DNA from: an uncultured Chromatiales bacterium
Lineage (GTDB): Bacteria; Pseudomonadota; Gammaproteobacteria; S012-40
DNA length: 64,000 nt
Assembly: GCA_964442745.1 (NCBI GenBank)
Contig: CAYUAI010000008.1
Location: forward strand, 22,337-86,336
Direction of reading: 5' to 3'
This document shows positions 26-12,309 of this stretch, one piece after another. The notes under the pieces were generated by a model. It was given only the letters and a program-made list of their open reading frames with translations. It did no database searches and was not told the DNA's origin. Numbering within the stretch: position 1 is the first letter of the stretch; each line of letters opens with the position of its first letter. The translations under genes were made by a program, and so were the position numbers.

Positions 26-1279
26 TTACGTGTTTTGATTCGGCTGATCCATTTGTTTAAACAATCGAAAAGCCATCAATGCCAGCAATAAAACACCCGC
101 CATCAGTACCGACCACAGGACGTATTTTTTCCAGTCTGTTTCAGGGCGAGGTGGCAACAGACGCGATTGATCTCCAAAATCGATGGCTGCACCGAGTTTT
201 GCTGATTTTATCAGGTTGCCTTTTTGTATCATCGAACTCTCGCTCAATAACTGGCCTAACGACGCCGTTACCGGCCCAACCCGTGCGCTTCCATAGGTCA
301 AGGTAAAGGGTGGCTCACCACTCGCTACAAATAAAAGTTGTTCTGGAATCCAACCTAAACGTAACTTCGGTAATCCCCTAAAACCACCATCACTGTTGAG
401 TATTTTCACTCGCCAGTACCGATGTGAATTAATCGCCTGATGTATGACAGAATTAGACAATCGCGCATTATCAATATTCAGGTCATACAATAAACCATTG
501 TAACGACGATACCAGGGACCAACTGAACTTGACGCCGACTCAATCAATACATTGACCAAGGTATTTTTCGACGGTAAATCGATATTCAGGCGATCAGCGG
601 GCAGCACTGATTTTGTTTCAAAAAAATACGTCAAATTAGCCTGGTCAATATCAACCGGCATAAATTCTGACCAGTGCCTTGATTGAGTCTGATTTTTAAA
701 TTTCATGTGGCTGATAGTGGATGATGGTTTTAGCAAACGCCACCCATTAAGATCATCACTGCCCTCAAGTACAACATTGAGAATAAAATTTGCATCAGCT
801 GATTCCCATTCAATCTCGAAATGATCTGGTGCCTCGGTTAATGCGCTGGCATCAATGATATAGGCGTAAAGGTATTGACCTTTTTTCTCGGCTTTTCCAT
901 CGTTCAGGTCAATGATTGCCCCCTGATCATTTGTGGTAATGCGAATATGACTGCTCGCCGCCTCTACTTTATCTTTTTTATACCATGGAAAGAACGGCAA
1001 TTTAATTGTCGGCGCGGCCTTTTTAGTCATTCGTTCCGTCTGACGAATGACATGAGGAGCAATATCCCCGACACGACTAAAAATACGCAGGTCACCCCGG
1101 TCTTCTCGTGTCATTCCCTGGTATATTTTTTCATTCAGATACAATGAATAAACAGCACTATCACCATCAACCTTAATGCTATATCCATAGGCAAACTTAT
1201 CTTTTGATACTTGAGTTTCTTCCCGTGCAAAACCTGTTGTTGCCACAACAAAAGCAAGCCATGTAATTATTGTCTTCAT
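26..1279 (-). CDS. DUF3999-family secreted protein, partner of the downstream DUF2339 membrane protein
   Basis: 417-aa ORF with an N-terminal signal peptide (MKTIITWLAFVVATTGFA). It overlaps the DUF2339 ORF by 4 bp, which is the usual DUF2339-DUF3999 operon arrangement. Family assignment is from recall of the architecture, not from a search. Confidence 0.5.
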   Translation of the reverse strand: MKTIITWLAFVVATTGFAREETQVSKDKFAYGYSIKVDGDSAVYSLYLNEKIYQGMTREDRGDLRIFSRVGDIAPHVIRQTERMTKKAAPTIKLPFFPWYKKDKVEAASSHIRITTNDQGAIIDLNDGKAEKKGQYLYAYIIDASALTEAPDHFEIEWESADANFILNVVLEGSDDLNGWRLLKPSSTISHMKFKNQTQSRHWSEFMPVDIDQANLTYFFETKSVLPADRLNIDLPSKNTLVNVLIESASSSVGPWYRRYNGLLYDLNIDNARLSNSVIHQAINSHRYWRVKILNSDGGFRGLPKLRLGWIPEQLLFVASGEPPFTLTYGSARVGPVTASLGQLLSESSMIQKGNLIKSAKLGAAIDFGDQSRLLPPRPETDWKKYVLWSVLMAGVLLLALMAFRLFKQMDQPNQNT

Positions 1280-3582
1280 GCCTGCTCTCCTTCTTTTTGT
1301 GGCGGTAGCGGCGATAAATAATACCCAAACACCACCGCCAGTATACCAACGACGGTTATCGAAATGGCCATCGCCAATGCCCCGGCATTTGCAATATCAA
1401 TCAAAAATAATTTTACCGCAACAACAATAAATAATCCAAGCCCAATAAACCAAAAATGGCGACTAAGACGTCGAGATGCATAGGTCATAATCGTGAGCGC
1501 CAACAAAGTCCATAAAACAGAGATGGCCCCCTGAAAAAGATCGGATGATAACAGACTATCCAGCGTGTGACGAACATCAAACCAGTGATGTATTGTTCTT
1601 GCCAACATCCCATTTAACCAGGAAAAACCTAAGGCGGCCAAAACATAATAAAACTGTTTTGTGGTGATCATATTTGCAATACGGCTTTCCGTTTCAGCTA
1701 ACGCAGTGCGCCATACAATTAATAAGTAAAGTAAAAAAAACACGATAAGATCAACCGGGTTCATCACGGGTATATAGCTCACTGGCCAAGCATTACCTTC
1801 ATGCAATACCGAAAAACCGGCAGCGACTAGCGTCAAACCAAACATCACCGGAGTGGCGGCATGACTTATATACCATAAATAATGTTCTTTAAATGGCCAG
1901 TTTATCTTTCTGCCCACCGTAAGCAAAGCAAACATTATCAAGGCTGGAACCAGAACAGACATACCGTCGCGCCAGGCATGACCGCCGCTAACCAGCTTAT
2001 CGATCGAATAAGCCCCTTCCCATGTGAACAAAATAATCACCAACCAAAAAGTCATGATATGTTGCCACTGTAATAAGGGTTGAGGGACTTCATCGCGATA
2101 ACGATATAAATACCAGTATTGCAAGGTTAATGTGACTAACCAAACAATACTGCCAAAATCTTCAAAGGGATGATTCAGCCCGAAAATCACGCCCACCAAC
2201 AACATTAAAAACATGACATAAAGATTCGCTAACACCGGAAAGCGCATCATTTTCCATTTAATCCAGAATTGAGTTGCACAACATAAATACAGACTCAGAG
2301 TAATAAAGGCAAACCAGCTATTAACCAGATAAACAGAACGAACACTGGACTCGACTTCGATTAAGCCCATGACAAACCACCATACCAAACCCCATATAAA
2401 TAAAATAATAGACACGGGTTTTTCATACGAACGAATTTTGTCGATATTTTTGTATAAATAGTAACTCACAAACAGGGCAGAGAGACTGATGGTCACACCA
2501 CCAAGATAAAAACCATTGATCATAGGAATCGAAGTTTTCGGCTGATGCAAGTGATTCAGGAAAAAGTAACCTGCACCAAATTGTAATAACACGCCAAATA
2601 AACGTGGCAAAATTCTATGTTGACGAATACCCACCCAGACCAGAGCCGCCCCTTCAAGAGCCCAAGCCGCCGATGACCAACGGCCATCCAATGCAAGTGG
2701 AATCGCTAATGAAGCAAACACGACACCTAAAGCCAAAAATGATTCGGTTAACAAACGCATTCCGGTTGGACCACGCCGCCACAGGACTGAGGCTAAAACA
2801 ATATAAAAACCCCCCATTGCCAGTGCGCTAAAGGCAACCGACATACCGGTTTGAAAGGTATCAAACACGATCGCCGCCTGATAGCCAAAACTAATGATGG
2901 GCACGCCAAATACCAGCGTACCGTCGATGTAACCTTTCAGGTTGGGCGGTTGGCGGAATGCGTATAGAATGGCAATGCTCGTATACATCAGAAAATAAAG
3001 GATTAAAAAAGGTTCCGTGCTATAAAAATCAGCCGACGTGTAGCGGCTTTCACCCCATATGCCAGCGATGCCAAAGGTAAAAACAAACCCGATCAGATTT
3101 AATTCACGCCAGCTTTTATACCAGGCGATCGACAGGATACCAACATTCAACAACGTATAGTAACTGAATAAAACAACGGGGTTACCTTCGCCGGTGGACA
3201 ACAATACTGGGGCTAGAAAACCACCGATGACGCCAAAGAAGGCCAGTGACTTTGCATTCTGTAAGATAGCCAGGATAGTCGAGAACACAACCAGACCGAT
3301 CATAACGATGAATGCCATTGTGATCGGTACCATGCTAAAGAATTTGGTCGCACCGAATACGGTGAGATACATGACACCAATACCACCGCCTTGTAAGACC
3401 AACGCATATAAACGTTTGGAGTCACGAAAACGCCAACCAAAAATAACCAGCGCAAGTCCCAGCAGTCCAGCGCCGGTAAATCGAATGAGCATTGAGACGG
3501 TAAAGAGTTCTTCGTCGTAGGCGTATTTTAGCAAAAAGCCAACGCCAATAATTAAAAACAGCATGCCGACTTTAACCACCAC
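1276..3582 (-). CDS. DUF2339-family polytopic membrane protein (major C-terminal part; frame stays open upstream to a stop at 3757-3759)
   Basis: 768-aa ORF that is almost entirely hydrophobic helices (more than 20 predicted TM segments). The same frame read upstream of the annotated GTG gives a Pro-rich linker (…QPAPTHQQATARPVPQSVRPLPPSAPPRFEEN…), which is typical of DUF2339 N-terminal regions. Confidence 0.6.
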   Translation of the reverse strand: MVVKVGMLFLIIGVGFLLKYAYDEELFTVSMLIRFTGAGLLGLALVIFGWRFRDSKRLYALVLQGGGIGVMYLTVFGATKFFSMVPITMAFIVMIGLVVFSTILAILQNAKSLAFFGVIGGFLAPVLLSTGEGNPVVLFSYYTLLNVGILSIAWYKSWRELNLIGFVFTFGIAGIWGESRYTSADFYSTEPFLILYFLMYTSIAILYAFRQPPNLKGYIDGTLVFGVPIISFGYQAAIVFDTFQTGMSVAFSALAMGGFYIVLASVLWRRGPTGMRLLTESFLALGVVFASLAIPLALDGRWSSAAWALEGAALVWVGIRQHRILPRLFGVLLQFGAGYFFLNHLHQPKTSIPMINGFYLGGVTISLSALFVSYYLYKNIDKIRSYEKPVSIILFIWGLVWWFVMGLIEVESSVRSVYLVNSWFAFITLSLYLCCATQFWIKWKMMRFPVLANLYVMFLMLLVGVIFGLNHPFEDFGSIVWLVTLTLQYWYLYRYRDEVPQPLLQWQHIMTFWLVIILFTWEGAYSIDKLVSGGHAWRDGMSVLVPALIMFALLTVGRKINWPFKEHYLWYISHAATPVMFGLTLVAAGFSVLHEGNAWPVSYIPVMNPVDLIVFFLLYLLIVWRTALAETESRIANMITTKQFYYVLAALGFSWLNGMLARTIHHWFDVRHTLDSLLSSDLFQGAISVLWTLLALTIMTYASRRLSRHFWFIGLGLFIVVAVKLFLIDIANAGALAMAISITVVGILAVVFGYYLSPLPPQKEGEQA

Positions 3583-4043
3583 GTTGCCATCGGTAAAAAA
3601 TTTATGGAGATAGGCCTTTGCTTTATCAATAACATTTTCTTCGAATCTTGGTGGTGCTGACGGTGGTAGCGGGCGAACCGATTGTGGTACAGGTCGAGCG
3701 GTAGCTTGCTGATGAGTTGGTGCCGGTTGTTTAACCTCCGTGGCGATGTTACCGGTTCAACGTTAACAGGTTCAGCTGGCTCTGGAACATCAGTTGGAGT
3801 TATTGCTGCCACCCAATCGACAGGTGATTCAGCACCTTTTTCCCAACGTTCGTCTTTTAAGGTGAATACGAGACGTTCTAGTTTTTGTAACTGCTGTCCC
3901 AGATCTTTAACTTTTCCTGAAAGCGTAATAATCGCACCTAAACCATACCCTATCAGACCGCCAAAAATAAATCCCAAAGCACCCGCCATAAAGCCGCCTA
4001 AAAGGCCCACTACAATGGCCAACACTGTCCCAATAGTTGTCAT
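3552..4043 (-). pseudogene. N-terminal fragment of the DUF2339 gene (TM helix + coiled coil + Pro/Glu-rich linker), separated from the body by an apparent frameshift near 3740-3775
   Basis: ORF starts MTTIGTVLAIVVGLLGG…(Gly-rich TM)…LGQQLQKLERLVFTLKDE…ITPTDVPEPAEPVNVEPVT and then turns into low-complexity nonsense. The out-of-frame continuation matches the upstream Pro-rich extension of the 1276..3582 ORF. Together they rebuild the canonical DUF2339 architecture. Confidence 0.5.
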
Positions 4044-4257: not shown

Positions 4258-4443
4258 TCATTTTATTTCCAGCTCGCGTTTACTGGCGATGCTGCGTGGA
4301 TGACTACCTCCCTGATAAACCAGAATCCGGGGCTTGCATCCACAAAAATATTTTGCGCCTTGCAAATTGTTATGTTGCAACAGACGCCGCTCCATGTCAT
4401 TGGTAATGCCGGTGTACAAGCTATCATCCGTGCACAGAATCAA
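4258..4443 (-). CDS. GIY-YIG nuclease-superfamily protein (UPF0213/YhbQ-like)
   Basis: …LILCTDDSLYTGITNDMERRLLQHNNLQGAKY… matches the YhbQ core [31 protein letters not shown]. Only a TTG start is available and the N-terminal GIY element is weak, so the gene may be 5'-truncated. Confidence 0.55.
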   Translation of the reverse strand: MILCTDDSLYTGITNDMERRLLQHNNLQGAKYFCGCKPRILVYQGGSHPRSIASKRELEIK

Positions 4444-4842
4444 ATGCTGATGAAAGTGTATATGGTAATTTTCAGGAACAACTGTCTCGTATACTAAATA
4501 AAGAATAGCTGATTATTTTAACGTGGGTTATTGCGGCCTCAAATATAGAATCTGGAATAGATATCGGTGTTCGATTTGGGAGAACACCTTTGACTTTGAA
4601 GTCGATGATATGATTAACAGTACACTATCACACTTTAAGTGTATATGGCGCTAACTTAACAGGTTTGGCTGATTGTCCAGCTAACGAACTCTTTGATTCA
4701 CATGTCAAGGTATCGTCTTTTGATGAAGAAGAGGATGATATCAAGACGTTGGGGAAGATTTCAGCTATTAAGTACATGCCGGAGAAAACGGTTAAAAGGG
4801 TGTGCGGCGGAGCAAAGTCGATTGTTCCAACACCATCGGTTA

Positions 4843-5949
4843 TTAGTCTGTTTTAAGTTGGTCTGTGGCAGCTGTGGTTAGTCCATCGTCAATCCAGCGA
4901 TCGACAACTGCTTTATAAGCGGTTATGAATTCACTGCGCCCGGAAAGTTTGGGGTCGATTAAAAACCCATACCCCGTATTTAATGCCGCACTCATCTCTT
5001 GAGCCGTTAGCTCCGCGCAAAAAACACGAATAAAGTCCGTTAAATCGACAATGGCTAAATCAAAATTAGCGGCGGCGATAAAATCAAGCAGATGCTTAGG
5101 CGTAGACAGTTCTGGGTCACTACGAATACCTGAAGCAATTAACGTATATTTATCTAAGTGTCCACGGTTCATTTTCTCTCTAAGATCAGGGATTCTATTT
5201 TTCCAATCATCCCGCACAGTCACTTCATAGGCGTGGGTTAATCGACCATCCAGAAACTCTTCAATATCACCACAAGTATTATCGAACTTATCAGACGCAT
5301 GTGGATGATGCGTCATAATTTCCGCCGCTATTTTTTTTCGATGATGGAATAAAATGGCCGCCACTAAAAATTGCTGTACATGCCCCTCGGATGGAATCGC
5401 AGACAACTCCATAAACAACCCAACGGCTTTAGCATAGGTTAAATAATTCGCGGGCAATGCAGGCAATGCGGGCGGCACCCGGCGAGTTTGTGCAATAAAT
5501 AAACATAAATCATCCAGCAATTGCTTCCTTTGCTGCCGGTTTTTATCACGTATCCAAGCAATAAACTCACTAAAGCGAGGATCTTTCGACAAATCAAAAT
5601 TTCGGACATTACCCTTCCATCCCAAGTTTTCACCAAAGGCAGTAATATTCTTATGAAAAGTCACATGCCGCTGGGTCAATGCAGAGGCTAAGCGTTTATC
5701 GCCATATTTTCCTCGAACGCCAATGGGAATCGCCGTAAAATTCCATGTTTCATCCACCAATGAATAGCCCAGCAAAAAAAACGAGGCTAACCTAACACTA
5801 CCGCCATGTCCGGCAAAACGCTGCTGTATCTGCTCGCTTTGCTTAACAGGCAATTGATGGGCCGCTTCATTATTAATGCATCGATCCACTTCCGCCAATA
5901 ACCTATCGACGGCTTGCTCCACCTGCTGGTTTCGGCTAGCTTTTGCCAT
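4843..5949 (-). CDS. Putative type II restriction endonuclease (368-aa partner of the adjacent C5-MTase); family not recognised
   Basis: Co-directional ORF directly downstream of the m5C methyltransferase, overlapping it by 14 bp if the start is Met23 (MAKASRNQQ…). No recognisable housekeeping-enzyme motifs. Confidence 0.4.
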   Translation of the reverse strand: MAKASRNQQVEQAVDRLLAEVDRCINNEAAHQLPVKQSEQIQQRFAGHGGSVRLASFFLLGYSLVDETWNFTAIPIGVRGKYGDKRLASALTQRHVTFHKNITAFGENLGWKGNVRNFDLSKDPRFSEFIAWIRDKNRQQRKQLLDDLCLFIAQTRRVPPALPALPANYLTYAKAVGLFMELSAIPSEGHVQQFLVAAILFHHRKKIAAEIMTHHPHASDKFDNTCGDIEEFLDGRLTHAYEVTVRDDWKNRIPDLREKMNRGHLDKYTLIASGIRSDPELSTPKHLLDFIAAANFDLAIVDLTDFIRVFCAELTAQEMSAALNTGYGFLIDPKLSGRSEFITAYKAVVDRWIDDGLTTAATDQLKTD

Positions 5950-6991
5950 CACTCTGCCCTGCCATAAAAGAGTGGTCCACATCCAACAACTTATGGGCCT
6001 GTGGCTGATCATCAAGCTGTATCATTAGCGCTTCCCCAAGGCGCTGCGCAAGCAACGGAGGAACGGCGTCACCCACTTGTGTATACCTGGACGAACGACT
6101 TCCAAAAAATGCCATGTGGTTAGGAAATGTCTGGATGATCGCACACTCTTCCACCGATAATCGACGTGCGCCAGGCACGATACCTGTCCTCGCTTTGCCT
6201 CCTTGTTTTAAGTGTGCATGATACTTAGGCGCAATATTCTGGGTATCCACCCAATGCGTCTTATATCCCCCTGAGGACGCTAGTATGGTATGGCATGGCC
6301 CATGAGGATCAATCGGCCTACCGCCTCCGTTGTATATGAGACCGGCATAAGGACTTTTTCTCAAATCCGGGTTTTGGGCAAATTTCACTGGGGAATTAGG
6401 AGGGTCGCCAATCGGCACATTGGACAAGTAGTCAGAAGATTTAGGATGCGCGACATCCGTCAGTTCACCATGACTAGGAAATGGAAATAACAAAAACTTG
6501 GATTGACTGCCCAGAATGAACAAGCGACGCCGTTTTTGCGGTACACCATAATCAGCCGAATGCAATACCATCCAATTGAGCTTATAGCCTAGCTCACTTA
6601 GCCGAAAAAGAATGGAATCAAAATAAGGCCGTGCTTTTTTCATTATTAAACCCGGCACATTTTCCATGACAAAAGCTTCGGGTTTTACTTCGTGTAAACA
6701 TCGGATAAACTCAGGAATCATATCTCTTGCATCATGCTGGCCTTTGCGCAGACCACCGAGTGAAAATGGCTGACAAGGCGGTCCGCCGATAACCATATCA
6801 ACTTTGTTACGATAATTTTTAAAGCTGACACAACGAATATCTCTATTGATGTGCATACAATGAGCATGGTGGCTCGCATAACTCGTCATCGAGTCTTGAC
6901 TCACGTCAACGCATAGCTCAGGGACAATGCCCGCTAATTTCATACCCAGCGACAAGCCACCTGGACCACTGAACAAATCGATAGCCTTCAT
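5936..6991 (-). CDS. DNA (cytosine-5)-methyltransferase
   Basis: Canonical m5C-MTase motifs: motif I DLFSGPGG, motif IV GGPPCQPFS, motif VI ENVPGL, followed by a variable target-recognition region. Confidence 0.85.
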   Translation of the reverse strand: MKAIDLFSGPGGLSLGMKLAGIVPELCVDVSQDSMTSYASHHAHCMHINRDIRCVSFKNYRNKVDMVIGGPPCQPFSLGGLRKGQHDARDMIPEFIRCLHEVKPEAFVMENVPGLIMKKARPYFDSILFRLSELGYKLNWMVLHSADYGVPQKRRRLFILGSQSKFLLFPFPSHGELTDVAHPKSSDYLSNVPIGDPPNSPVKFAQNPDLRKSPYAGLIYNGGGRPIDPHGPCHTILASSGGYKTHWVDTQNIAPKYHAHLKQGGKARTGIVPGARRLSVEECAIIQTFPNHMAFFGSRSSRYTQVGDAVPPLLAQRLGEALMIQLDDQPQAHKLLDVDHSFMAGQSDGKS

Positions 6992-7031
6992 ACTTCGCTT
7001 TATTTACCGTGTGGTCAACCCAGGAAAATAC

Positions 7032-8123
7032 TTACTCACAATCAAACGCACTCTCGTAATTTTTTCCTAAAATATCACTCAACGCCTGCAACAGTGCAGC
7101 GCAATGCGGATTAGTACCCACCGTAATACGTAAAAACGACTTGATGCGTGACTGATGGAAATGACGCACAATAATGGCCCGTTGGCGCAGTTGCAGAGCA
7201 AGCGACTCAGCCTCCTCATGTTTATGACGAGCAAAAACAAAATTGGCCATGGAAGGCAAAACCTCAAAACCTAATTGCAGCAACCCGGCCACTAAGCTTT
7301 CTCGGCTCTGGATAATACGCTGTCGATTTTTTTCAAAAAAGGCCTGATCTTGCAGTGCAGCCACCGCCCCAACAATAGATAAACGACCTAAAGGATAAGA
7401 ATTAAAACTATTTTTAACCCGCTCCAATGCTTCAATAAGTGCCGCCTCACCGATGGCAAAACCCACCCGCAATCCAGCCAATGAGCGGGATTTAGAAAAC
7501 GTTTGAATCACCAGCAAATTTGGATATTGATTTACCAGAGCAATCGCCGATTCTCCACCAAAATCAATATAGGCCTCATCCACCACCACCACCGATTGCG
7601 TGTTACGCTCTAACAATGCTGAAATATTCGCCAACGTTAATAAACGACCAGTGGGGGCATTAGGATTAGCAAAAATAATTCCACCGTTAGCAACACCATA
7701 ATGATCTAACGCGATTTCGAATGTATTTGTGAGCGCCACCGTATTATATTGCACATCATATAATCGGCAGTATACCGGATAAAAACTGTAGCTAATATCA
7801 GGAAACAACAGCGGCTGTGGGTGTTTTAATAATGCCTGAAAGGTATGTGCCAATACCTCATCGGAACCATTGCCCACAAACACCTGTTTGGTCGCCACCC
7901 GATAATAATTGGCGATAGCATCTTTCAAAAGATCAGCGTTGGGATCAGGATACAAACGCAATGTATCACCCATGGTTTCTGCCTTTAAAGCCGCTAACAC
8001 GGCTGGTGAAATCCCATAAGGATTTTCATTGGTATTTAGCTTGATCAGATTAGCCAATTTAGGCTGCTCACCCGGCACATAAGGGGTGAGATCATGAACA
8101 ACAGAACTCCAAAAATGACTCAT
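7032..8123 (-). CDS. hisC: Histidinol-phosphate aminotransferase
   Basis: N-terminal LNTNENPYG signature and the class II aminotransferase fold. Size is right at 363 aa. Confidence 0.85.
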
Positions 8124-9228
8124 AATATATTTCCAATGACATCCACCGGTTGACCACTACGCTAAATCTTGCGCTGTTGATGGTTTTGATTTACCCTTTC
8201 CTAAGCAACCTATTCAGTCGTATTGCTTGATAGTCAACCTTACGCCGCTCATCTCAAATCCTCCTTCCAGCGACTTTGAAATCATTATAAACGCTGAGGC
8301 TGAGCGATATCAGTTTGTAAAGAATTTTTCAGTTTTGATGCGAGCTTTCTCTGTAACATAGGTGGTATAACATCAAGTCCTTCCCACAGCAACACCTGAC
8401 ATCAGCGACAATGGCCACGTTACCGGAGTCTTTGGAGCGAACAAAAAATACCCAGAAAAGCATAAAACTCACACAATAGATCAGTATATATAACACATTG
8501 ACTGGCACACCTAGAAGTGTAAAATAATTATGATAAAAAACAATAGCGCCCCATAATACACAGAAACACTGAGGCGACTAAACTTTAATAAATATAACAA
8601 TAATTTTACCACTGTTATTCCGGGAAAACACCACCCTCCAACCAATCTTTTGACAATAATTACCAACTAAAAAAATAAACACCCATTAAAGATTTGAGCA
8701 ATCGCCATGATTCATCGTGCACACGCTTGACTCATGCAATTTCGCGACAAACGACGAAATAACTTGGACATATGATACTCAATATATTGGTAATTTCCAC
8801 CCTAGAATAAGACACCAAAAATCTAATACTAGACGACTGCAACCTCAAACAAATTAACATAAGGCGATAACACTCATAGACTAAAAAAATTTACTTTTAT
8901 AAAAATCACAAAACAACTTGATGTAAAATATACGCGTTGCAAATATTTTTCGACATAAAAATGTGCTTTACCCCATTTATGCTCAGTACGATCATAAAGT
9001 GAAATTTTTCACGCCAAAATTTAGATTAGATTTGGCCGTGCTAAGTATAACAACTGCATGGAGGCAGGCGTCAAATAATACAAGAACCGATTGAGTCAAG
9101 GAACGATTTAATTACCCATGTGGACGACACAACATCGTTAAATGATTTGTCGCGAATATACCTACATATTACTCGCTGTTTAAACTTGATCACATTAATA
9201 TATTGGTATTCGATGAGGTGGGGCCAAC

Positions 9229-12200
9229 ATGAATCGTATAAAAAATCAAAATATGACTATATCAAACCTGAAGTACAAAGTAATTCAATATTGGCTGAAT
9301 ATTTTCATTTGCATTTTAATTTTATTAAGCCAGCTAATTTTCGGGCAAGCATTCGCCGAGACAATATATGTGGACTCAGAAGCGAACCAGAATATGCGCC
9401 CGTTTAACAAACAAACGCTCAATGCTCAGGCCATCTTTGATCACGAGGGTATTGCTGACAACTGCCTAACCTGCCATTTCCCCAACAGCACAACCGCCAA
9501 AAAATTTAAAACAGCTACCCATACAGCTACCACCGATATTTGCGAAGATTGCCATTCCGTTTTATCCTGGCAGCCAGTTAAACGCTTCGATCACGATCAA
9601 GCATTAGGCCAATGCATCGATTGTCATGAGGGTAAAATTGCCCCCGGGAAAACAGCCAACCATATCGCCAGCAATAATGCATGTGGAACTTGCCATTCCA
9701 CGTTTACCTTCTTACCCATTAAACAAATCGATCACACCAGTGTCGTTGGCACATGTACTAATTGTCATGATGGAAATATTGCCAAAACCAAATCACCCAC
9801 TCACATTGAGACCAGTGATGCGTGTCAGTTATGCCATAATAGCCTCTCATGGTTGGCGGGCATTACCTTAGACCACTCTCAAGTTTCAGGCACATGTGCT
9901 AGCTGCCATAATAGCAGCTACGCCGCTGGCAAACATCCTTGGCATATCGACTCATCGGATGCCTGCGGCACCTGCCATGACACAACCCAGTGGCGCCCCG
10001 TTAGCCGTGTCGATCACAACGAAATAATTGGGACCTGTCGTGAATGCCATAATGGTAGATTCGCCATGGGCAAATCCGTGGGGCACGTATTATCCAGCAA
10101 TGTGTGCGAAGCTTGCCATAGCACGACAGCTTGGCGGCCTGTCACACGAGTAGAGCACAGTGAAGTCAAAGGTACCTGCAATGTTTGCCACGATGGCAGC
10201 AGTGCAATCGGCAAGCCTGTCGACCATTTACCCACCACAGATGAATGTAACATCTGCCACCAAACCACATCTTGGCAGCAAACACTTGGATTTATTCATC
10301 CGGGCATTAGCAATAACTGTGTCAGTTGCCATGATGGTAACACCCTTGCCGGTAAAAATAATACTCACATCACCACGACCGCCGCCTGCGAGTCTTGCCA
10401 TACCCCGGCAGCCTGGACAACCATTACCGCCGTTGATCATAGCCAGGGGACTGGCGATTGTTTTGATTGTCATAATGCAACAACCGCGACCGGTCAATCA
10501 GCCACTCACATTAAAACATCAAACCGCTGCGTCTCTTGCCATACCTCTGCCAGCTGGATACCGGCAACGACGATTGACCACAACGAAGTCATCGGTCGCT
10601 GCCTGGATTGCCATCATACAACCATCGCTTCTCAGGCGAAAAACCACATACCTATTCAAAACACACCCTGTGATGGATGTCATATCAATACCGCCTGGGT
10701 ACCAGTGGCTACCATGAACCATGATGTCGTCAGCACACCCTGTATTGATTGCCATGATGCGACCATCGGACCCGGCAAGTCAGCGGCCCATCCTCCCAGC
10801 TCAAATCTGTGCGAAGCTTGCCATGGGGTAACCGCTTGGCTGCCGATCCCAATCTTCGATCACACAGAAACCACCGGACTTTGCCAAGATTGTCATGCCA
10901 CCGGTATCGCTCCCGGCAAACTCAATAACCATCTACCTACCGATGAGCAATGTGACGATTGTCATGATCCCAGTGGATGGACGATAATTGTGTTTAATCA
11001 TAACAATCTCTCAGCATCTTGCATTTCATGTCATAATGATAACAACCTCCCAGGCAAACCAGCCACACACCTCTTGTCTTCTGATGCATGTAGCGCCTGC
11101 CATACCCCAAGTACTTGGGCACTGATTGCCACCCTCGATCACGACGAAGTATTAGGTGAGTGCCAAGACTGCCACAATGGTAGCATTGCTGTTAGCAAGT
11201 CAAACATTCATATTCCTACTTCGGACAAATGTAGTGCTTGCCATATCCCACTTGACTGGCAGCGCATTAATTTCATCGATCATACTGAAGTTTTTGCAGC
11301 TTGTGTTGAATGCCATAATGGGAAAACAACCCTTGGCAAAGGTAATAGTCATATAACTACCTCCGGTATTTGCGAAGCTTGCCATAACACATCTGCCTGG
11401 GTGCCGGTAACAACCATGGATCACAATGAAGTTTTAATTGCCTGTAATGGTTGCCACAATAGAGGCCTTGGGCACATTGGAAGCACCGAGAGCTGTGGTT
11501 CTTGTCATACAACAGACCAATGGGTACCAGCCCCTCTTGTCGATCATAATGAGGTAAAGGGTACTTGTGACTCCTGCCATAATGGCATTGCTGCAGACAG
11601 CAAACCTGGCGCCCATATCGTCACCCGTGCCCCATGTGATGCTTGCCACACGCCTAATCAATGGGCGCCATTAGCCACAATGGATCATACCGGTATTTCA
11701 GCCGCCTGCATGAGTTGTCACGATGGATTCACCGCCACCGGCAAAAGCTTAAACCATATACCCACATCAGATAGTTGCCATAAATGCCATGACACTAAGG
11801 TATGGGTGCCAGCAATCAAAGTCGATCACCTAGAAGTCATTGGCGACTGCTCAAGCTGCCACAATAGCTCAGCGACTCACATACGAACCAGTAGCACCTG
11901 TCAAGCCTGTCATAATACCATCGCCTGGTCACCCATTCTAATGATTGACCACAATGAGGTGATTGGTCTATGCACCGATTGCCACACTAAATCTTTAGCT
12001 CATGCCAATACCTCAATTTTTTGTGAAGCCTGCCATACCAACCAGCGCTGGGTACCCGTGCTTACCATGGATCATAATGAAGCCTTTGGCGCTTGTGCTG
12101 ATTGCCATACCCCCTCAGCAAGCCACATCAATAGCACCAATATTTGTGAAGCTTGTCATACATCCACGGCCTGGGTCCCGGCAATTACCGTCGATCACAA

Positions 12201-12309
12201 CAACGTATTAGGCACCTGCTCACGCTGCCATCCTTTGCCCGCTGACCATGACCCCACCGATGGTGCCGAATGTAATGCGGCCGGGTGCCATAACATTACT
12301 GGCTGGTAG
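9229..12309 (+). CDS. Secreted giant multiheme c-type cytochrome with about 41 CxxCH heme-binding motifs in tandem doubled-CxxCH repeats
   Basis: GAGGTG Shine-Dalgarno about 9 nt upstream of ATG 9229. Sec-type signal peptide (…LNIFICILILLSQLIFGQAFA|ET). 41 CxxCH motifs are spaced about every 26 aa with alternating half-repeats: CxxCH-x3-W-x-P-x5-DH-xEVxG and CxxCH-(D/N)G-x2-A-x-GK-x3-HI-xTS. The C-terminal site is an atypical CNAAGCH (CX4CH). Confidence 0.85.
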   Translation: MNRIKNQNMTISNLKYKVIQYWLNIFICILILLSQLIFGQAFAETIYVDSEANQNMRPFNKQTLNAQAIFDHEGIADNCLTCHFPNSTTAKKFKTATHTATTDICEDCHSVLSWQPVKRFDHDQALGQCIDCHEGKIAPGKTANHIASNNACGTCHSTFTFLPIKQIDHTSVVGTCTNCHDGNIAKTKSPTHIETSDACQLCHNSLSWLAGITLDHSQVSGTCASCHNSSYAAGKHPWHIDSSDACGTCHDTTQWRPVSRVDHNEIIGTCRECHNGRFAMGKSVGHVLSSNVCEACHSTTAWRPVTRVEHSEVKGTCNVCHDGSSAIGKPVDHLPTTDECNICHQTTSWQQTLGFIHPGISNNCVSCHDGNTLAGKNNTHITTTAACESCHTPAAWTTITAVDHSQGTGDCFDCHNATTATGQSATHIKTSNRCVSCHTSASWIPATTIDHNEVIGRCLDCHHTTIASQAKNHIPIQNTPCDGCHINTAWVPVATMNHDVVSTPCIDCHDATIGPGKSAAHPPSSNLCEACHGVTAWLPIPIFDHTETTGLCQDCHATGIAPGKLNNHLPTDEQCDDCHDPSGWTIIVFNHNNLSASCISCHNDNNLPGKPATHLLSSDACSACHTPSTWALIATLDHDEVLGECQDCHNGSIAVSKSNIHIPTSDKCSACHIPLDWQRINFIDHTEVFAACVECHNGKTTLGKGNSHITTSGICEACHNTSAWVPVTTMDHNEVLIACNGCHNRGLGHIGSTESCGSCHTTDQWVPAPLVDHNEVKGTCDSCHNGIAADSKPGAHIVTRAPCDACHTPNQWAPLATMDHTGISAACMSCHDGFTATGKSLNHIPTSDSCHKCHDTKVWVPAIKVDHLEVIGDCSSCHNSSATHIRTSSTCQACHNTIAWSPILMIDHNEVIGLCTDCHTKSLAHANTSIFCEACHTNQRWVPVLTMDHNEAFGACADCHTPSASHINSTNICEACHTSTAWVPAITVDHNNVLGTCSRCHPLPADHDPTDGAECNAAGCHNITGW

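Follow-up and report, generated by a model that had tools for sequence, protein, structure and literature searches.

A predicted Type II restriction–modification gene pair from a widespread, poorly annotated family lies beside hisC in an uncultured Chromatiales bacterium

Gene organization of the locus

A 64,000-nt stretch of contig CAYUAI010000008.1 (assembly GCA_964442745.1; hereafter the window) from an uncultured Chromatiales bacterium carries on its minus strand two co-directional, overlapping genes that very probably form a Type II restriction–modification (R–M) system. The upstream gene encodes a 351-aa cytosine-5 DNA methyltransferase, here termed M, and the downstream one a 368-aa partner, here termed R; the family of R is termed A1 and a sister family A2. 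The initial annotation of this DNA had proposed the two open reading frames (ORFs) as such a module, and both were recovered from the sequence at the same positions, with the same orientation and overlap (Table 1). Judged by the strong family matches described below, the two are genuine genes rather than chance ORFs, and, as in other Type II R–M systems, M and R are encoded by separate, adjacent and co-directional genes.

The mechanically called ORF of R is longer (390 aa, from a TTG at 6015), but in the A1 alignment the homologues begin at the position equivalent to the later ATG ('M..RN'), which supports the 368-aa form. Measured from this ATG (5949), the last base of the M stop codon (TAG, 5936–5938) is 14 nt further downstream, so that the R gene starts inside the end of the M gene.

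Table 1. Coordinates of the R–M genes and of the neighbouring features in the window.
Feature	Position	Strand	Details
M, cytosine-5 DNA methyltransferase	5936–6991	minus	351 aa, ATG start
R, predicted Type II restriction endonuclease, PD-(D/E)XK-type core, EcoT38I-like fold	4843–5949	minus	368 aa from ATG
M/R overlap (M stop codon region and R start codon), putative coupling junction	5936–5949	minus	14 nt, read from sequence
Spacer from hisC stop to M start	6992–7031	minus	40 nt
hisC, histidinol-phosphate transaminase; context gene, outside the R–M system	7032–8123	minus	TIGR01141 equivalog
Synteny breakpoint	4824–4856		blastn: L004 alignment ends at 4856, L085 at 4824
63-aa ORF	4665–4856	plus	convergent with R, overlaps R 3′ end by 14 nt
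GIY-YIG ORF	4258–4443	minus	PF01541, E 1.6e-10; 61-aa fragment
DUF2339 membrane-protein gene, split by frameshift	1276–4043	minus	163-aa ORF (3552–4043) and 768-aa frame

M carries the complete motif set of a 5-methylcytosine methyltransferase

M matched Pfam PF00145 with residues 1–322 on profile positions 1–322 of 324 (E 2.2e-60; 205.3 bits against a cutoff of 22) and TIGR00675 (dcm) with 181.4 bits (E 3.4e-53; cutoff 100.65), while its best PADLOC match was the MTase_II model PDLC03307 (E 1.2e-86). The closest solved relative was M.HaeIII (1dct; E 4e-30 over residues 1–321). In the alignment with M.HaeIII, motifs I (DLFSGPGG), IV (GGPPCQPFS, containing the catalytic Cys), VI (ENVPGL), VIII (QKRRRLF), IX (RRLSVEECAIIQTFP) and X (GDAVPP) were all present, so M has the complete catalytic motif set expected of the modification enzyme of a Type II system; the initial annotation, which had called a complete 5-methylcytosine (m5C) set from FSGPGG, PCQ and ENV, was correct on this point.

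In domain, motif order and length class, M resembles M.HaeIII, which recognizes GGCC, and other Type II m5C methyltransferases. However, its target-recognition region (approximately residues 180–270, between motifs VIII and IX) has almost no identity to that of M.HaeIII. Because this region is not conserved, the GGCC specificity of M.HaeIII is not transferable to M, and such a transfer was rejected.

R belongs to a restriction endonuclease family with an EcoT38I-like fold

R matched the PADLOC Type II restriction endonuclease (REase) model PDLC03410 from end to end (E 7.9e-104, 346 bits; residues 5–355 on profile positions 2–353 of 355) and matched no non-nuclease family; the Pfam and NCBIfam scans run here yielded nothing for it. 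This REase_II model gives neither an enzyme name nor a specificity; its proteins fall into a length class of ~352–368 aa, show the M→R architecture in all loci examined, and are called 'hypothetical protein' by NCBI. The partner had been described as uncharacterised, a description that does not hold, as its family is already recognised by defence-system hidden Markov model libraries. Compared with most A1 members, R has 4 extra residues at the N-terminus and roughly 13 at the C-terminus. A total of 465 homologues were found in a large protein database, almost all of them unnamed or 'hypothetical', and none was found in the phage collection. A search of 1.84 billion cluster representatives with the A1 profile yielded 215 proteins at E≤1e-3; the A2 family, ~350-aa proteins matching at E 1e-24 to 1e-8, aligned with A1 over the full length (hhalign probability 99.9%, E 1.4e-35).

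The AlphaFold2 model of R, built on 57 family members, had a mean pLDDT of 89.6. When it was compared with the PDB by Foldseek, three matches at E≤1e-3 were obtained, all of them EcoT38I (best E 4.8e-10, ~370 columns), followed by other PD-(D/E)XK nucleases. The model contains a helix–strand–strand–strand–helix core at residues 190–262. Across the 57 aligned members, R included, 63 residues are invariant, and the invariant residues of R cluster in this core (SEGH..QQF, THHPHASD, GD228IEE and YE242VTVRDDWK250NR). D228 and E242 would act as the metal ligands and K250 or R252 would supply the positive charge, so that R combines a nuclease fold with a predicted active site, as expected of the restriction enzyme of a Type II system. 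EcoT38I (GRGCY^C; PDB 7e8r and 7edb), an enzyme carried on a P2-like prophage, shares 11–13% identity with R at a TM-score of ~0.4, values that imply a different domain arrangement, and no sequence or profile match connected the two proteins.

A relationship to SacI (GAGCT^C; family PF09566), which published sequence analyses class as PD-(D/E)XK (PMC2441816, PMC3424549), was also evaluated. Among the matches listed, most R homologues carried a precomputed Pfam PF09566 match, its RE_SacI_N strength being 'weak' or 'faint' wherever stated, including for R and its closest relative. In A2, 9 of 47 members weakly matched the catalytic-core part of the RE_SacI profile, none of them reaching the gathering score of 19.3 bits (best 17.2). 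Since the gathering threshold of 19.3 bits was not reached by R, its membership in RE_SacI was rejected, and SacI is at most a superfamily-level relative. Searches of PDB sequences by phmmer and with the profiles of A1 and A2 gave no match; the A2 member P0184 retrieved a single, non-significant chain (E 0.95). R thus probably belongs to a wider EcoT38I/SacI-like group.

M and R are paired across unrelated hosts

The A1 set comprises 78 loci, 74 from metagenomes and four others, namely Desulfuromonas soudanensis (two assemblies of one region), a Pseudomonas island flanked by an integrase and resolvases, and a Sphingomonas replicon. In D. soudanensis WTL the REase gene of the orthologous pair is DSOUD_1562. 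An orthologous m5C methyltransferase gene was located directly upstream on the same strand in every locus whose upstream DNA extended to 1 kb or more (71/71), and the hosts of these 71 loci are unrelated. Across 60 loci, the identity of M to its window counterpart rises with that of R (Spearman 0.81). In 34 of 63 A1 loci the M stop codon and the R start codon share 1 or 4 nt, and in most of the remainder they are only a few nucleotides apart.

The representative library also contained a 717-aa protein, P0139, with PF00145 at residues 4–324 and the R-family nuclease at residues 365–714 of one polypeptide. P0139 is an apparent single-chain M::R fusion, for which a gene-calling or frameshift artefact is possible.

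The pair is conserved and selected beside hisC

In the database, the window DnaB had only two close relatives (94% and 91% identity); the next, at 78%, were labelled as Gammaproteobacteria metagenome-assembled genomes. Three lineages were compared: the window and two relatives, represented by loci L004 and L085–L088. All of them carry hisC, M and R in the same arrangement, and M and R are intact in all three. Close relatives have thus retained M at the same site, and in each of them an intact R accompanies it. The dN/dS ratios (nonsynonymous to synonymous substitution rates) among the three lineages were 0.06–0.10 for M, 0.11–0.12 for R and 0.07–0.09 for hisC, with dS of ~0.6–0.75 in the comparisons involving the window lineage. 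By these ratios M and R are under purifying selection similar to that on hisC, and therefore both are maintained by selection, M not being an orphan.

With orphan Dcm-type methyltransferases, M shares the m5C chemistry and a stable chromosomal place beside a housekeeping gene. In contrast to them, it has an intact cognate nuclease always alongside, and it scored only 24.9 bits with the Dcm subfamily model NF007772 (cutoff 710). The orphan Dcm-like enzyme conserved in all relatives, named in the initial annotation as one alternative outcome, is thus not what these lineages carry.

Neither M nor R was present near hisC in 80 more distant genomes among the matches listed (hisC ≤71% identical), so the pair probably entered this small clade through its common ancestor. 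A further observation concerned L004 and L085, compared over window positions 4869–8182: M–R is 92–96% identical between them, while the adjacent hisC is only 80–89% identical. Identity switches near the M start, at about 6870–7060 of the window, and dS is 0.19–0.24 for M and R vs. 0.53 for hisC. These values suggest that the R–M module was exchanged between the two lineages by homologous recombination.

Candidate target sites

GGGCCC did not occur in the 64-kb window, where 3.9 (maximal-order Markov), 7.8 (zero-order) or 10.3 (order-2) occurrences were expected, and among hexamer palindromes it showed the strongest depletion across 643 kb of DNA from family hosts, with 47 occurrences against 266 expected. 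Control loci (1.36 Mb) were depleted of it too, with an observed-to-expected ratio of 0.36; the extra depletion in hosts vs. controls was approximately two-fold and uneven by GC class, one GC bin showing no difference. No avoidance signal was found for degenerate sites (GRGCYC, GDGCHC, GWGCWC and others). Palindrome avoidance was therefore rejected as proof that GGGCCC is the target, since the site is rare in controls too, and it is kept as a weak lead.

EcoT38I (GRGCY^C) and SacI (GAGCT^C) both cut sites of the GNGCN^C type, a pattern that GGGCCC fits, which makes a GNGCNC-type target such as GGGCCC a weak lead for the M–R pair as well. In the genome paper of D. soudanensis, PacBio methylation is mentioned but no motif is given, and the papers found on ApaI and GGGCCC concern unrelated methyltransferases.

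Interpretation of the M–R pair

Taken together, gene anatomy, family membership, fold, obligate pairing, gene fusion and purifying selection argue that M and R work as a Type II R–M system of two genes in M→R order, with Type IIP the most likely subtype; we put the probability of this reading at roughly 0.88. The initial annotation had called the downstream ORF the cognate restriction endonuclease, and this assignment gains support from the PDLC03410 match, the structure model, the 71/71 pairing, the fusion and the purifying selection. In such a system, M would use S-adenosylmethionine to methylate C5 of a single cytosine on each host strand of a target that is short and probably palindromic, and R, as a PD-(D/E)XK-fold enzyme, would cut the same target when unmethylated, e.g., in incoming phage or plasmid DNA. 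As the R gene starts inside the end of the M gene, R translation would probably be coupled to that of M and held at a lower level. The pair would apparently be transcribed with the upstream hisC and would operate with no separate controller (C) protein.

Several observations weigh against this interpretation. The A1 sequence profiles matched no solved structure in the PDB. Local Pfam RE_SacI gave no match to R or to four family members even at a permissive E-value limit, leaving the precomputed 'weak' or 'faint' RE_SacI_N calls and the sub-threshold A2 matches as the sole Pfam signals. In R a threonine (E-V-T) occupies the position where the canonical (D/E)XK lysine is expected, and the catalytic assignment is for this reason tentative. 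Once the controls are considered, site avoidance singles out no target. Finally, neither biochemical nor methylome data were found for any family member, so that activity and specificity of the pair are inferred.

The missing lysine also bears on whether M could be an effectively solitary, Dcm-like epigenetic enzyme accompanied by the remnant of an inactivated nuclease, an idea that draws further on the stable, vertical inheritance of M–R beside a housekeeping gene in three lineages, a pattern seen more in domesticated methyltransferases than in mobile R–M systems. A remnant, however, would not be expected to keep its full length and remain undisrupted in each of the three lineages, with a dN/dS of 0.11–0.12 at dS ~0.6, nor to retain the 63 residues invariant across the aligned family, and the whole R family shares the E-V-T variant, indicating that it is the normal active-site form of the family and not a lesion. 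We consider this explanation very unlikely. It is highly improbable that R is instead a nuclease of another role, e.g., in modification-dependent restriction or m5C-mismatch repair: a methyl-dependent nuclease adjoining, coupled or even fused to the methyltransferase that makes its substrate would be self-destructive, the sole significant Foldseek match of R, a full-length one, was to a classical Type IIP enzyme, and the PADLOC model that R matched is a Type II REase model.

M further matched the PADLOC models DruM (E 6.9e-73) and DrmMII (E 7.6e-44), as it might if it were part of a larger multi-gene defence system of the Druantia or DISARM type. These matches are weaker than that to MTase_II and reflect the shared m5C catalytic domain; moreover, M is flanked by hisC and R with no helicase, DUF1998, PLD or DruE-like genes nearby, and the two-gene unit recurs alone in unrelated contexts, which makes a larger system extremely improbable. 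A more elaborate form of the preferred Type II reading was also considered, in which the R family is a separate EcoT38I/SacI-like branch with its own specificity, e.g., GGGCC^C as for ApaI or some other GNGCN^C site, and the pair was domesticated in this gammaproteobacterial genus into a stable hisC operon and retained from a time preceding the split of the three lineages, rather than being a short-lived mobile element. As a whole this version is unlikely.

As a Type II R–M system of a known kind, the M–R pair does not challenge current understanding; it is a routine bacterial defence module of a widespread, poorly annotated family. For annotation, several hundred NCBI 'hypothetical protein' entries can confidently be called Type II restriction endonucleases because of the obligate m5C methyltransferase partner, the natural fusion and the EcoT38I-like fold. 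For the host organism, the pair represents a predicted barrier to DNA uptake and an m5C motif that would have to be mimicked in genetic work. Its long vertical retention beside hisC, combined with the signs of recombinational exchange, provides a small usable example of R–M persistence.

hisC and the upstream region

The gene adjoining M was identified as hisC by its equivalog match to TIGR01141 (301.6 bits, cutoff 276.55), as initially annotated. A consensus scan of the hisC–M spacer detected no terminator-like and no sigma-70-like promoter site, and the best promoter-like site on the minus strand was found upstream of hisC, at 8313–8284. Given the short spacer lacking both signals and the promoter-like site before hisC, it is plausible that M and R are transcribed together with hisC as their probable operon partner. 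The 40-nt gap held no ORF for a C-protein (a small helix-turn-helix controller), and Rfam scans of the spacer downstream of R and of the gap upstream of hisC gave no match.

The 3′ flank of R is variable

Towards the 3′ side, sequence similarity to the two related lineages is lost no more than ~20 nt from the R stop codon (4843–4845), and the genes further downstream differ in all three lineages: a 350-nt spacer, the GIY-YIG fragment and DUF2339 in the window, pentapeptide-repeat and nucleotidyltransferase genes in L004, and an adhesin-like gene with a PIN/Phd toxin–antitoxin pair in L085. The surroundings had been described as a small defence/accessory patch; a description as a variable region starting right at the 3′ end of the R gene fits better. 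Small accessory modules also recur just 3′ of R elsewhere (L085, 12064–14900; L004, 4992–6412; L090, 11252–11983), comprising the PIN/Phd toxin–antitoxin, nucleotidyltransferase (NTP_transf_2) genes and DUF2442, which suggests that the 3′ flank of this R–M family is a hotspot for small accessory cargo.

The GIY-YIG ORF was correctly assigned to its family, as the PF01541 match showed, but it is not an intact gene. It lacks an ATG, its first beta-strand is degenerate, and it stops after 'ELEIK' inside the conserved C-terminal region, with 'LKRRGK' following in frame; it is also absent from both related lineages. Its sequence identifies it as what is left of a small, decayed YhbQ-like gene, with no demonstrable link to the R–M pair. 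The DUF2339 gene beyond it, likewise noted in the initial annotation, is indeed disrupted, by a frameshift. The 163-aa ORF represents the N-terminal transmembrane, coiled-coil and Pro-rich part, and the 768-aa frame is open upstream of its GTG start. Because the split is identical in three independent assemblies, the frameshift is probably genuine rather than a sequencing error. The 63-aa ORF, the only small ORF nearby, had no match in NCBIfam (a Pfam scan was not made) and is not conserved in the relatives; it is probably not a gene.

On the other side of the locus, hisC and the divergent cytochrome genes are separated by ~1.1 kb of AT-rich DNA (8124–9228, ~33% GC), which contains no convincing ORF and is 70–80% conserved in the relatives. 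Beyond it, 9229–12309 on the plus strand encodes a giant multihaem cytochrome of 1026 aa, in which 41 CxxCH haem-binding motifs were counted. It gave seven repeated matches, below the model cutoff, to the DmsE-family decahaem model and is kept in the relatives (1030 aa in L085).
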